Source: Escherichia phage LH2
Sequence record: OQ378934.1
DNA: 64,000 bases
Direction: 5' to 3' (one strand)
The notes beneath the pieces were generated by a model. That model searched no databases and was not told where the DNA came from. It was given only the letters and a program-made list of their open reading frames with translations. Of this stretch, positions 2,383 through 61,105 are shown piece after piece (positions within the stretch are counted from its first letter, which is position 1; each line of letters opens with the position of its first letter). The translations under genes were made by a program, and so were the position numbers.

Positions 2383-3242
2383 AGCCTACTATTTTAACTG
2401 ATATTGATGGAGTATGTTTAAGCTGGCAATCAGGTCTTCCTTATTTTGCTCAGAAATATAATCTTCCATTAGAACATATTTTAAAAATGATCCAAGATGA
2501 GAAATTTATTTCTCCGGGTAAACTCTTTAATTGTGATGAAGAACTTGGCGTCAAGTTAATTGAAAAATACAATCGTTCAGATTTTATTCGTTACTTGTCT
2601 CCGTATAAAGATGCCCTGTGTGTAATTAACAAATTAAAAGAAGATTATAATTTTGTAGCTGTTACAGCATTGGGTGATTCTATTGACGCTCTGTTAAATC
2701 GTCAATTTAATTTGAATGCTCTTTTTCCTGGTGCCTTCTCAGAAGTAATGATGTGTGGTCATGATTCTTCAAAAGAAGAGTTATTCAAAAAGGCAAAAGA
2801 GAAATATAACGTAATTTGTTATATTGACGATCTCGCTCACCACTGTGACCACGCGAGTGAAATATTGAATGTTCCTGTTTATTGGATGGCTCGAGGAGAG
2901 CGTGACAATATTCCAAAAACTGCGCAGCGAGTTTATACATGGAATGATGTAGAAAATAAGCTTTTTTCGCCGAAGGAAAATAAAGAAAGTTTTGATAGTG
3001 AAAAAGCTATAAAAGATGTAATTGAGAAGATGGTTAAAAACGATTCTTTTCGTTGGAACACTACCTGGAGAACTCCTGGATTTAATCCGTATAATCCATA
3101 TTATACACATCCATATAATCCATATTATACACACCCGTATCATATGAATCCATTCCATACGTGGAGTTATACTAAGCCTGGTGATGCAGGGTATTTTAAT
3201 AGATTTACTAGTGGTGATAATATTTTCCAAGGAGCATTCTAA
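2379..3242 (+). CDS. HAD-superfamily hydrolase-like protein, 287 aa, with repeat-rich Pro/Tyr C-terminus
   Basis: N-terminal motif ILTDIDGV fits HAD motif I (DxDG); ATGA overlap with the upstream ORF. Confidence 0.5.
   Translation: MKPTILTDIDGVCLSWQSGLPYFAQKYNLPLEHILKMIQDEKFISPGKLFNCDEELGVKLIEKYNRSDFIRYLSPYKDALCVINKLKEDYNFVAVTALGDSIDALLNRQFNLNALFPGAFSEVMMCGHDSSKEELFKKAKEKYNVICYIDDLAHHCDHASEILNVPVYWMARGERDNIPKTAQRVYTWNDVENKLFSPKENKESFDSEKAIKDVIEKMVKNDSFRWNTTWRTPGFNPYNPYYTHPYNPYYTHPYHMNPFHTWSYTKPGDAGYFNRFTSGDNIFQGAF
3091..3138 (+). repeat. tandem 24-bp direct repeat, two copies, inside the HAD-like gene
   Basis: ATAATCCATATTATACACATCCAT then ATAATCCATATTATACACACCCGT; encodes the repeated YNPYYTHP peptide. 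Confidence 0.8.
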
Positions 3243-5174: not shown

Positions 5175-5182
5175 TATAAATA
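5175..5182 (+). promoter_or_regulatory. late promoter TATAAATA for alt
   Basis: Exact consensus 27 nt upstream of the alt ATG. Confidence 0.5.
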
Positions 5183-56917: not shown

Positions 56918-57190
56918 ATGAAAACTTTCAAAGAATTTATCGTTGAATCTGCTCTTAATGAAGAAGTAAAAATTAGCAAAGCTGTCAAGACTATGATTGC
57001 TGACATCAATTACCTATATGGTATTGATTTAACTGACTATGTAACAGTTGGTAACAAACGTAACTATTTCGTGTTTGACATCTCTGAACTTGACCAGAAT
57101 CAAATTAACAACATTGAGCGTTTTGCTAATGATAAGGGTCTTCGACACGAGCCTGGTGGCTATAAAAAATACGCAATTTATTTAAAATGA
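56918..57190 (+). CDS. internal-protein-like protein with capsid-targeting-sequence-like N-terminus, 90 aa
   Basis: N-terminus MKTFKEFIVESA resembles the T4 internal-protein targeting sequence (MKTYQEFIAEA, from memory); lies in the ipI-equivalent locus. Confidence 0.55.
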   Translation: MKTFKEFIVESALNEEVKISKAVKTMIADINYLYGIDLTDYVTVGNKRNYFVFDISELDQNQINNIERFANDKGLRHEPGGYKKYAIYLK

Positions 57191-58318: not shown

Positions 58319-58390
58319 GGCCCTGTAGCTGGAAGGTTCAAGCAAGCGACTCATAATCGCCAGATGGTGGTTCAATTCCACCCAGGGCCA
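58319..58390 (+). tRNA. tRNA-Ile (anticodon CAU, presumably lysidine-modified)
   Basis: Acceptor GGCCCTG/CAGGGCC, anticodon loop CTCATAA; T4 carries an Ile tRNA of this type. Confidence 0.75.
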
Positions 58391-58431: not shown

Positions 58432-59097
58432 ATGTTCCATTACATTTATAAAATAACAAATAAAATTAATAATAAAATCTATATAGGCGCTCATTCTACC
58501 GAAAATTTAGATGATGGATATATGGGTTCTGGTAAATTATTAAAAAGAGCCCAAGACAAGTATGGTATAGAAAATTTTTCTAAAGAAATATTAGAGTATT
58601 TTGATGATAAAGAATCTATGCTTGAGTCAGAAAAGAATATTGTGACTGAAGAGTTTTTAAAGCGCCCTGATGTTTATAATTTGAAATTAGGTGGTGAAGG
58701 TGGTTGGGACCATTTAAACACTAAAGAATATTTGGATAAAAAGAAAGAAGCTTCCTTAAAAGGGGCTGCTGCTTTTAAAACCAGATTTGAGAACGACCCA
58801 GACCTTAAAGAAAAATATCGTAAAATGGGTTCAGAAAGGTTTAAACAGCTTTGGGATAATCCTAAGTATAGAGAGAAATTTTTAAATATTAAATCTTTCT
58901 TGGGTAAGACCCATACTCCTGAAACTATTAATAAAATGAAAGAATCTCACGCCAGAAATAAACACCAACAGGGCGAAAAGAATTCCCAATTTGGTATGAT
59001 GTGGATTCATTCATTAGATGAAAAAGTTTCTAAACGTATTAAGAAAACTGACCCAATTCCAGAAGGATGGTTTAAAGGTCGAAAAATGAAATTTTAA
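58432..59097 (+). CDS. segB: GIY-YIG homing endonuclease inside the tRNA cluster (SegB-like)
   Basis: 221 aa; YIYKITNKINNKIYIGAHS ... DDGYMGSG ... NLKLGGEGG; sits between tRNA-Ile and tRNA-Arg as segB does in T4. Confidence 0.8.
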   Translation: MFHYIYKITNKINNKIYIGAHSTENLDDGYMGSGKLLKRAQDKYGIENFSKEILEYFDDKESMLESEKNIVTEEFLKRPDVYNLKLGGEGGWDHLNTKEYLDKKKEASLKGAAAFKTRFENDPDLKEKYRKMGSERFKQLWDNPKYREKFLNIKSFLGKTHTPETINKMKESHARNKHQQGEKNSQFGMMWIHSLDEKVSKRIKKTDPIPEGWFKGRKMKF

Positions 59098-59100
59098 TTA

Positions 59101-59177
<77 letters not shown>

Positions 59178-59179
59178 AA

Positions 59180-59487
59180 CAAGAAACCGGGTCGCTACCG
59201 GTAAGTCGTCGGACTGATGTTCCCTGGAGTATAGTTTCTCCCACAGTTTTACTGTGTTCTGATTCTTTACTATCACAACAGAAACGGCGCACCGAATTAT
59301 CGATTCGAGGAAATATCTTTGCCGTAAGCCGAGTAGCGTTTTTGACGGAACGTTCGGATATGGTCGAGATATGGCCTTTTAAAAATATTGAGTAGCGTCA
59401 ACTGCTTAATAACCGGGTTCAAATCCCGGCGTTTCGTACAAACACTTGCCTTAGCAGGTGGAACCCCGACAAGATTGCCGCAAGGCT
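59180..59487 (+). ncRNA. stable-RNA region (T4 rnaC/rnaD-like), boundaries not resolved
   Basis: About 300 nt ORF-free and GC-rich, directly after tRNA-Arg, ending at a terminator; contains a tRNA-like T-arm CCGGGTTCAAATCCCGG. Confidence 0.4.
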
Positions 59488-59488
59488 T

Positions 59489-59516
59489 AGCCCCACCCGA
59501 AAGGTTGGGGCTTTTT
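59489..59516 (+). terminator. rho-independent terminator, copy 1 of a duplicated terminator
   Basis: Hairpin AGCCCCACCCGAAAGGTTGGGGCT plus TTTTT. Confidence 0.7.
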
Positions 59517-59518
59517 GG

Positions 59519-59526
59519 TATAAATA
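59519..59526 (+). promoter_or_regulatory. late promoter TATAAATA
   Basis: Exact consensus 40 nt upstream of the ORF at 59566. Confidence 0.5.
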
Positions 59527-59565
59527 TAGTAGTATATTAAATCACGAATTAAAACAGGAAATAAG

Positions 59566-60024
59566 ATGAAATCATATGCTCAATTTTTAAATGAAGCATC
59601 CGCTTCAGATGTTCGCGCTGTAGCAACTGCTGCTATTAAAGCTGGTAAATATTCTTATAAAGATGCTTCTGACGAATCTCGGTACAAGTTCTACGACGAT
59701 ATGAGAGCTGAAGGCTTTGTGGGTAACTATGTTACCACCGCCTGGAAAAGCCTGGTTGCTACTGGTGCGGCTTTCGAAAAACCTTCCGGTAAACCTGCTC
59801 CTAAGGCTGACCCTAAAGCAGCACAAGAGAAAAATATTGCTAAAGGAATTATCTCTAGGTATGAAGCAATTCTTAAAGAACTTTTGGTAATTAAGACCGA
59901 AGGCCAGAAACTTGCGCGAGCTCATAGTTTCAAAGATAACCCACATGCTCATGACCTAGAGTATGTTGAAGATCTCCAAAAAATCATCAAAGACCGCATT
60001 TGGTCTGCTAAACAAATCAAATAA
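59566..60024 (+). CDS. internal-protein-like protein with capsid-targeting-sequence-like N-terminus, 152 aa
   Basis: N-terminus MKSYAQFLNEASA resembles the T4 internal-protein targeting sequence; driven by a late promoter; flanked by duplicated terminators. Confidence 0.55.
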   Translation: MKSYAQFLNEASASDVRAVATAAIKAGKYSYKDASDESRYKFYDDMRAEGFVGNYVTTAWKSLVATGAAFEKPSGKPAPKADPKAAQEKNIAKGIISRYEAILKELLVIKTEGQKLARAHSFKDNPHAHDLEYVEDLQKIIKDRIWSAKQIK

Positions 60025-60031
60025 CATTCTT

Positions 60032-60059
60032 AGCCCCAGCCGAAAGGTTGGGGCTTTTT
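60032..60059 (+). terminator. rho-independent terminator, copy 2 of a duplicated terminator
   Basis: Hairpin AGCCCCAGCCGAAAGGTTGGGGCT plus TTTTT; one mismatch versus copy 1. Confidence 0.7.
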
Positions 60060-60193
60060 GGTATCTAGGCCTTTCTGGATCTCTCTAGGCATCATTTAGT
60101 TTCTACCTTTTATAATATATTATCCTATCCTTTAATTGCCCCTCCCTGCCCTAGAATTCCCTAAAACTTTTTAAAAAATTTTTTCACAAAACT

Positions 60194-60223
60194 GTTTACA
60201 TCCCTGTTCTTCCATGGTACTAT
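60194..60223 (+). promoter_or_regulatory. early promoter (GTTTACA, 17 nt, TACTAT)
   Basis: T4 early promoter consensus upstream of the ORF at 60268. Confidence 0.45.
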
Positions 60224-60267: not shown

Positions 60268-60531
60268 ATGGATAATTACGGCGAACTGTTCAACTTCTTT
60301 ATGAAATGCGTTTCAGAAGATTTCGGTCGTACAGTGAATGATATTAAAGTTATCGGTCCTGATCATCCGATGTTTGAAACTTACGCAGTAATGGGTAATG
60401 AAGATGGTCAGTGGTATACTGTAAAGGTTGTGATTAACATGTTCACTGCTGAAGGTTATGTTAAACTGTCTTCTAAAGTTTACCATGATAACGACGAAAT
60501 CGCAGAAGAATATTTTAATAATATGAAATAA
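60268..60531 (+). CDS. hypothetical protein, 87 aa
   Basis: ATG with GGAGAA Shine-Dalgarno; the ORF-track start at 60214 lies inside the promoter. Confidence 0.5.
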   Translation: MDNYGELFNFFMKCVSEDFGRTVNDIKVIGPDHPMFETYAVMGNEDGQWYTVKVVINMFTAEGYVKLSSKVYHDNDEIAEEYFNNMK

Positions 60532-60567
60532 GTTTACATAGGCTCATGATTGAGATATTATGAGCCT
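60532..60567 (+). promoter_or_regulatory. early promoter (GTTTACA, 17 nt, TATTAT) with embedded stem-loop
   Basis: Stem AGGCTCAT/ATGAGCCT overlaps the -10. Confidence 0.5.
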
Positions 60568-60586
60568 ATAATTTGAGGAAACTGTT

Positions 60587-61105
60587 ATGCCTCTTTATAC
60601 CGAACTGAATGAAACTTCCGAAAAATCTTTTGATGGTATCTTATCAATAATGCAAAAGCAGGTATTAGAACAGCTTAGTGAAGCCGCAAGCAACGGACAT
60701 AAGGCTTGTCGAATCCCAAGCCCACATCGTCGCCTGTATGAACGCCCTCTTATTAATTGGCTAGAAAGCGAAGGTCTTACAGTTAAGATTTGTCCTGCCA
60801 AATTTGATGTCCCACGTATTCTTAATATTTACTGGGATAAACCGATTGAGAAAAGTGAACCTTGGGTTGTCAATGTAAAAACATATGATAATGGATGCTC
60901 ACTTGAGGTGTCTGCTGTAATTAAAGGCACTCACGGTGAAAAATCGTGGGGTTGGCCTGGTAAAGATAAAGAAATCGTGTTAAGTGTAAAAGCTACTAGT
61001 ATTAGTACTCCTATAGCTAAAAGCATTATCGCCGCCGCTGTTGAAGAAGCTGAACGAATTTGTAAAATTAAAAATAGTTTACATCTCTTAAATAGCATGA
61101 TATAA
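60587..61105 (+). CDS. hypothetical protein, 172 aa
   Basis: ATG ORF downstream of the early promoter module. Confidence 0.5.
   Translation: MPLYTELNETSEKSFDGILSIMQKQVLEQLSEAASNGHKACRIPSPHRRLYERPLINWLESEGLTVKICPAKFDVPRILNIYWDKPIEKSEPWVVNVKTYDNGCSLEVSAVIKGTHGEKSWGWPGKDKEIVLSVKATSISTPIAKSIIAAAVEEAERICKIKNSLHLLNSMI

Follow-up and report, generated by a model that had tools for sequence, protein, structure and literature searches.

The interval between rnaC and e.8 in Escherichia phage LH2 (OQ378934.1) is probably a unit of a late cassette array encoding an undescribed internal-head-protein family, a reading to which we give a probability of roughly 0.63. The analysis covered a stretch of 64,000 nt, hereafter the window. 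The interval holds a 152-aa ORF with a candidate capsid-targeting leader, preceded by a late promoter and placed between two nearly identical terminators. Judged from the related loci compared below, the site is an array and not a single insertion.

Layout of the rnaC/e.8 interval

The window is Tequatrovirus (T4-like) DNA, the region having 90-97% identity to Tequatrovirus phages, and the local order runs from a seven-tRNA cluster through segB, tRNA-Arg, rnaD and rnaC to the studied interval and then e.8 (Table 1). rnaC, the last gene of the tRNA transcription unit, is the left neighbor of the cassette site, which is separate from both canonical internal-protein loci (57B/tRNA.4 and e/denV). 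A first-pass annotation of this DNA had placed here two terminator hairpins differing by one base, bracketing a late promoter and a 152-aa ORF, at a site apart from the ipI-equivalent locus. All of the coordinates hold, the promoter and the ORF are where they had been put, and the gene lies between rnaC and e.8; the repeat is in fact 36 nt long.

Table 1. Features of the rnaC/e.8 interval and its surroundings, in window coordinates.
Feature	Position	Strand	Remarks
ipI-equivalent	56918-57190		starts MKTFKEFIVES
segB	58432-59097		
tRNA-Arg	59101-59177		
rnaC (species 1 stable RNA)	59300-59438	+	97-99% identity to the RB33 and T4 rnaC annotations
Repeat copy A, predicted intrinsic terminator of the tRNA/rnaC unit	59486-59521	+	hairpin 59489-59512, T-run 59512-59516
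Predicted late promoter core TATAAATA	59519-59526	+	exact T4-type consensus; overlaps the 3' end of copy A
Shine-Dalgarno-like AGGAAA	59556-59561	+	4 nt before the ATG; conserved in the upstream-region alignment
152-aa ORF, PHROG 2280	59566-60024 (stop included)	+	begins MKSYAQFLNEASA
Leader, candidate capsid-targeting sequence MKSYAQFLNE	59566-59595	+	predicted gp21 cleavage after Glu10
Predicted mature part	59596-60021	+	142 aa, pI 9.4
Repeat copy B, the cassette's own predicted intrinsic terminator	60029-60064	+	hairpin 60032-60055, T-run 60055-60059; terminator scan
e.8 early-type promoter TTTACA-17-TACTAT	60195-60223	+	promoter scan; outside the cassette, in the right flank
e.8 homologue, site-defining right neighbor	60268-60531	+	97-99% nucleotide identity to T4 and RB33 e.8

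The terminators form a direct repeat in which 35 of the 36 positions are identical, at a spacing of 543 nt, and their cores of hairpin plus T-run (AGCCCCACCCGAAAGGTTGGGGCTTTTT at 59489-59516 and AGCCCCAGCCGAAAGGTTGGGGCTTTTT at 60032-60059) are one base apart. Copy A folds into nine pairs around one C/U mismatch (-16.3 kcal/mol) and copy B into ten continuous pairs (-20.6 kcal/mol), each with a GAAA tetraloop and then U5; shuffled sequences never folded as well as either. With a G+C-rich hairpin followed by a U-run, both copies are predicted to be intrinsic (rho-independent) terminators. The element at copy A is annotated as a potential terminator in T4 record X03016, and the terminator downstream of the gene has also been marked by independent annotators. 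Identity between the copies reaches into the unpaired flanks, taking in CTTA ahead of the stem and GGTAT behind the T-run. The 28-mer core, at three mismatches or fewer, occurs in only these two places in the 64 kb (0 expected from 100 shuffles), and this search gave no further copy at the ipI-equivalent locus or elsewhere in the window.

The first three bases of TATAAATA are the last three of copy A. The octamer alone is not rare in the window (22 occurrences against about 10 expected), and its placement, 2-3 nt past the T-run and 31-42 nt before the ATG, is kept in three T4-like genera, namely Tequatrovirus, the Klebsiella T4-like phages and Tegunavirus. In the window 39 nt separate its 3' end from the ATG, predicted to be a suitable distance for a T4 late promoter. 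The annotators of phage SA20RB independently label TATAAATA a T4 late promoter, and the same record annotates the e.8 promoter as a T4 early promoter. Given this layout, copy A would halt early and middle transcription arriving from the tRNA genes; TATAAATA, 2 nt past the T-run, would initiate the late ORF transcript; and copy B would end that transcript ahead of the e.8 early promoter. The ORF would then be a late-only unit within an early region, a unit made up of late promoter, ORF and terminator that starts directly after the terminator of the tRNA/rnaC unit.

Elsewhere in the window, at 5175, 23360(-), 29368(-) and 42733(-), TATAAATA stands directly after strong hairpins of unrelated sequence, from which we take a terminator followed by a late promoter to be a general layout in this genome. 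Among these terminator and TATAAATA pairs, only the rnaC/e.8 terminator is duplicated.

Several further observations concern the surroundings of the site. Rfam returned zero family matches for the stable RNAs rnaD and rnaC, which together span 59180-59440; the rnaD part (about 59201-59300) has 64-78% identity to RB33, fD1 and G8, and rnaC 97-99%. At 58319-58390, where ARAGORN calls a tRNA-Met (anticodon CAT), T4 annotates a tRNA-Ile, and the matching position suggests that this is probably a modified-CAU isoleucine tRNA. Phage G8 (L002, about 2680-3170) is about 370 nt longer between tRNA-Arg and rnaC, with small hypothetical ORFs annotated in the extra DNA; a check of this DNA for tRNA gave zero. 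Between tRNA.2 and tRNA-Gln, RB33 (L001 726-1241; RB33_136) and fD1 (g142) have a 171-aa ORF that the window and T4 lack. This indel gene was considered as a further leader-bearing gene and rejected, having no internal-protein leader; fD1 g142 was scored virion-associated despite the absent leader. To the right of e.8 (60533-61105), the early promoter TTTACA-17-TATTAT shares sequence with a 13-bp inverted repeat (60538-60569), an arrangement resembling the promoter/stem-loop elements on either side of canonical ip genes. The ORF that follows (60587-61105, 172 aa) is common to the window and RB33, and T4 (e.7), fD1 and G8 carry different genes at that position; from about 60550 on, the match to fD1 and G8 breaks down.

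The 152-aa protein and its leader

The ORF is a real gene on the evidence of its dN/dS against seven homologues (0.08-0.16), which indicates purifying selection at about 0.1, and its product matches the PHROG 2280 profile over its full length (residues 1-152, E = 2e-53). The N-terminal half evolves faster (dN/dS 0.10-0.24) than the C-terminal half (0.03-0.06); by the latter value the family shows more conservation than is usual for an arms-race effector, which counts against an effector reading. The AlphaFold2 model (mean pLDDT 82.9) is all-helical, with two domains and a Lys/Pro/Ala linker between them, and the predicted structure includes a long coiled hairpin. Fold and family searches with the protein yielded no match giving a function. 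A profile search of 1.84 billion representatives returned just 23 proteins, so that the family is narrow and the search added no wider context. For the mature part, homology with T4 IPI, IPII and IPIII was rejected, as the leader alone aligns, at about 7-8 bits. The UniRef entry of Klebsiella phage KPKp names its homologue “Internal head protein”; every other name seen was hypothetical, as was every homologue label among the 60 tblastn matches listed. One 182-aa relative (P0031) has the family's N-terminal domain seemingly fused to the first part of MSKFNFIQIERG..., a gene that in Klebsiella phage VIPKPNOM02 follows the homologue; the P0031 sequence suggests that a deletion or frameshift joined the homologue to its downstream gene.

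The ten N-terminal residues of T4 IPIII suffice to bring the protein into the head, positions 4 and 7 controlling targeting and positions 8 and 10 processing, and the prohead protease gp21 cuts after L/I-x-E (reviewed in PMC9026906). The leader studied here, also about ten residues long, has Tyr at position 4 (where Tyr or Phe is expected), Phe at position 7, and Leu8-Asn9-Glu10 followed by Ala, and so holds all four positions (Y4, F7, L8, E10) experimentally critical in IPIII. For comparison, T4 ipII and ipIII start MKTYQEFIAE, T4 ipI starts MKTFKEF and PST ipVI starts MKTFKEFIAE. A leader pattern written after the sequences had been seen matched two of 577 candidate ATG starts in the window (at least 40 codons each), the 152-aa ORF and the ipI-equivalent. 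Across 26 aligned homologues from several T4-like genera the leader is kept, with E10 nearly invariant, and most of the more distant representatives keep it too, although the mature part falls to less than 20% identity to the window protein; MKFKEFLAE, MLEYSEFLKE, MINFSDFLNE and MITFNEFLNE are examples of such leaders. The persistence of the leader while the mature part diverges is our main argument that it is functional and not a by-product of recombination. The first-pass annotation had noted a resemblance of the N-terminus to the capsid-targeting sequence, and both the four critical residues and the family-wide conservation bear this out. Its wider suggestion, that late expression and a packaging signal point to a second injected protein, is supported too, with packaging and injection as predictions.

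Within the protein, L-x-E occurs only at residues 8-10 and 103-105, and the latter site lacks conservation in distant homologues. The beginning of the window ORF (59566-59610) is without 15 nt (AVLNE) of the common 157-aa alleles; the missing 15 nt lie between two TTAAATGAAGC repeats, and their loss removes one of two L-x-E sites.

By its leader, the product would be the precursor of an internal head protein whose first 10 residues take it to the prohead core, where gp21 would cut after Leu-Asn-Glu10. The basic mature protein of 142 aa would then stay with the DNA in the head and exit with it at infection. Our best guess, by analogy with T4 Ip1-3, is that the injected protein would inhibit a host defense against incoming modified DNA; alternatively, it would bind DNA within the head. 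Ip1-3 are inhibitors of GmrSD-type restriction enzymes, a different enzyme for each protein (PMC12373910).

In phage fD1, LC-MS/MS of purified virions detected the 157-aa homologue g140 above the strict threshold (PMC8309999, Table S3), and the canonical ip homologues g129 and g146 of this phage cleared it too. That preparation scored 113-137 of 277 phage proteins along with 672 host proteins, SegB, NudE and DenV being on the list (PMC8309999), and a non-leader ORF was also among the proteins scored. With so many non-structural and host proteins in the preparation, the detection of g140 is weak support for packaging. Our search of the literature found no cleaner virion proteome of a carrier phage, and the fPS-2/fPS-65 paper contains no proteomics. 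In fD1, gp21 cleavage after Glu15 or Glu10 would give peptides beginning ASSTEIQAVAK or AVLNEASSTEIQAVAK, and SYTQFLNEAVLNEASSTEIQAVAK would belong to unprocessed protein, most likely a contaminant.

Gain, loss and exchange of cassettes

In T4, T2 and PST the ORF is absent, and a single terminator copy, corresponding to copy A, is joined straight to the e.8-side flank (GGTATCTAAGCC...); the right flank of copy B in the window, GGTATCTAGG, continues as it does beside T4's single copy. With one copy left and an exact junction, this empty site is the product expected from one crossover between terminator copies. A comparison of T4-like genomes for presence or absence of the cassette, which the first-pass annotation had proposed as a check, was thus positive, with break-points in the repeat. 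Among 60 records drawn evenly from the 670 that match the T4 junction, nine contain the empty site in one uninterrupted piece. The ORF family was found by tblastn in 511 phage records, once per record, which is about three quarters of related records, and e.8 in 596. These population figures are BLAST counts in the GenBank phage collection, used because IMG/VR gave only 10 related loci. Present in 511 records and absent from T4, T2 and PST, the ORF is non-essential and polymorphic. T4, T2 and RB3 have a single copy of the 36-nt element; most other sampled records have two, and the highest number is three.

The interval from rnaC to e.8, extracted from 16 loci with BLAST anchors, contains zero units (T4 and PST), one (the window, RB33, G8, fD1 and others) or two. 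One such second unit encodes a 187-aa ORF starting MKTYAEFLTE, found in 165 records and always beside the first unit where checked; its terminal hairpin is a different one, yet its junction with the right flank falls at the same ...GGGCTTTTTGGTATCTAGG. A 205-aa ORF starting MKTYNEFLNE, of the same broad family (E = 2e-44), is present in JS98-like loci, and two of these loci (L013 and L015) have, behind the same terminator and TATAAATA, a 184-aa membrane-like ORF (MKLLKYLSWILLVPLDF...) with no leader, from which it follows that the array is not reserved for packaged proteins. In L016 the 184-aa ORF reads as fused to an upstream out-of-frame stretch. Each unit is preceded by the terminator and TATAAATA in most extracted loci; AATAAATA, a variant matching at seven of eight positions, takes the place of TATAAATA at the 187-aa unit and at the first unit in L011 and L012. 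Genomes with two cassettes thus have the terminator-promoter composite, or its AATAAATA version, before each unit; the window has the late promoter after copy A alone.

The alleles of the ORF vary independently of the flanking DNA. RB33 matches the window at 99% in the flanks but at 77% in the ORF, and phage 005 at 82% in the e.8 flank but at 93% in the ORF. In a 50-nt identity profile against RB33 and fD1, a divergent block runs from about 59601 to 60000, beginning just past the leader and stopping about 25 nt short of the stop codon, and against G8 the pattern is reversed. An alignment shows the window allele to be chimeric: the stretch between terminator and leader, both included, is of fD1 type and the mature part, starting with its first residues, of G8 type, with the junction at the leader boundary. 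These comparisons suggest that allele exchange draws on the promoter and the leader-coding DNA as a 5' handle, besides the terminators. The leader could in part be retained through its coding sequence as such a handle, which weighs against the targeting reading. Variants of the stem's 5' arm (GAC, AGC and ACC) occupy copy A in some genomes and copy B in others, and JS98-like loci have the paired change GGCCC...GGGCC in every copy, which points to homogenization within genomes. By this comparison, portable homology is provided by the near-identical terminators along with the conserved DNA of promoter and leader, and ordinary phage recombination between such stretches deletes the unit (T4, T2 and PST), adds units and swaps alleles.

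Direction can be judged from more distant relatives. Klebsiella T4-like homologues stand just after tRNA genes with the same hairpin, T-run and TATAAATA upstream, and in Tegunavirus fHe-Yen9-01 two tandem paralogues lie downstream of an rnaC-like stretch with the same upstream layout. This shared placement makes the gene look ancestral at the site, and the empty state of T4 and T2 looks most simply like a deletion between the two terminator copies. In a Klebsiella phage the terminators before and after the gene are unrelated to each other, which marks the terminator duplication as a feature of T4-proximal groups. The first-pass annotation had taken the duplicated terminators for recombination scars of an insertion; the repeat-bounded polymorphism it implied is there, but the direction is probably wrong, and the terminators look like functional elements of the unit rather than scars. 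About 400 nt upstream of the cassette site lies segB, and SegB could aid the spread of the region; homing by SegB with co-conversion was rejected as the cause of presence and absence, since T4 has segB yet an empty site.

Three other explanations were weighed. It is very improbable that the terminators are alike by convergence, or by an old duplication kept by selection, and play no part in gene gain, loss or exchange. Both do look strong and functional, and unrelated hairpins followed by the late promoter are common elsewhere in the window, but function of the hairpins has to be set against identity that extends into unpaired flanks, empty sites in T4, T2 and PST that are exact one-copy products, stem variants that swap between the A and B positions, the paired changes of the JS98-like loci, and ORF alleles that are independent of the flanks.

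The other two explanations concern the protein. An unlikely one, which we nonetheless rank first of the three, is that the ORF encodes an unpackaged late protein, either cytoplasmic or involved in assembly, the DNA of leader and promoter being kept as a recombination handle or translation-initiation region. The crossover in the window allele, mapping exactly to the leader boundary, fits this, as do a leaderless cassette in the array and the contaminated preparation from which the sole virion evidence comes. A handle made of DNA is harder to reconcile with a leader that is kept as amino acids in Klebsiella T4-like phages, Tegunavirus and other distant members despite diverged nucleotides, beside mature parts less than 25% identical, and whose conserved positions are exactly the four that matter for targeting and cleavage. 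Packaging might also be transient, if the protein were an accessory of the prohead core or scaffold (like gp67 and gp68) that is degraded or expelled at maturation, and not an injected effector. We hold this to be quite unlikely. A leader with L-x-E at both 8-10 and 103-105, the helical structure with its long coiled hairpin, and wide conservation across genera at low dN/dS would suit such a role; yet the protein is dispensable, given T4, T2 and PST without the gene, T4 core proteins are cut into multiple fragments (PMC9026906) whereas this one has just two L-x-E motifs, the second unconserved in distant homologues, and peptides were detected in mature fD1 virions. We therefore retain the internal head protein, encoded in a shuffled late cassette, as the preferred reading.

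Significance and relation to known systems

About three in four sequenced T4-like coliphages carry the family, which also occurs in several sister genera; almost all records call it hypothetical, and the laboratory models T4 and T2 are without the gene. As each T4 internal protein blocks a different GmrSD-type enzyme, further leader-bearing proteins are candidate anti-defense effectors with a ready assay. Tentatively, and at somewhat less than even odds, we propose that rnaC/e.8 is an unrecognized third site for injected head proteins, where PHROG 2280 and its paralogues would be a widespread family of injected effectors that, as Ip1-3 do, counter a host defense against incoming DNA. The late-only array would recombine at an intrinsic terminator fused to a late promoter. 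If that is true, this effector family escaped classical study because T4 and T2 lost the gene. The site is also a compact natural case of repeated regulatory DNA letting phages add, drop and swap single genes, with recombinant junctions readable directly in the sequence, and for phage therapy or engineering it offers a tolerated insertion point with its own late promoter, candidate packaging leader and terminator.

The closest likeness is to T4 IPI-III and the polymorphic ip genes, with which the ORF shares the leader MK(T/S)(Y/F)x(E/Q)F(I/L)xE ending in the gp21 motif. Both are small, non-essential, patchily present and flanked by repeated regulatory DNA, as described for the polymorphic ip genes by Repoila et al. 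(1994; as cited in PMC2839356 and PMC12373910), and their mature parts are mutually unrelated. The ORF differs in lying at a third site, rnaC/e.8, apart from 57B/tRNA.4 and e/denV; as late as 2025 a paper spoke of the two Ip loci. It also differs in its regulatory DNA, as T4 and PST ip genes stand behind an early-type promoter/stem-loop and this ORF behind a G+C-rich terminator and TATAAATA, and in its distribution, the family being conserved across genera and not restricted. Packaging, cleavage and injection are here predicted properties.

The PeSL and PmSL elements are promoter-early and promoter-middle stem-loops through which T4-like phages shuffle modules. With their cassettes the site has in common composite terminator-promoter elements repeated either side of small accessory ORFs, cassettes that bring their own promoter and terminator, and indels between close relatives (T4, T2 and PST) that end in the repeated element with one chimeric copy left. 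For the PeSL elements, recombination between repeats has been proposed, with excised mini-circles (PMC2839356, PMC4122927). The promoter here is TATAAATA, of the late type, on which those two papers are silent, and not an early sigma-70-like one. PeSL and PmSL elements are moreover spread through hyperplastic regions, whereas this repeat is found at one site in one to three copies per genome. A purely functional analogy can be drawn with integron arrays, which likewise consist of tandem single-gene units with a repeated recombination sequence and variable content at a fixed site; the rnaC/e.8 array has neither an integrase nor an attC-type site, each of its units has its own promoter, and exchange presumably proceeds by the phage's general homologous recombination. 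Taken together, these comparisons suggest that a known kind of shuffled cassette extends to a new site with a variant regulatory element.
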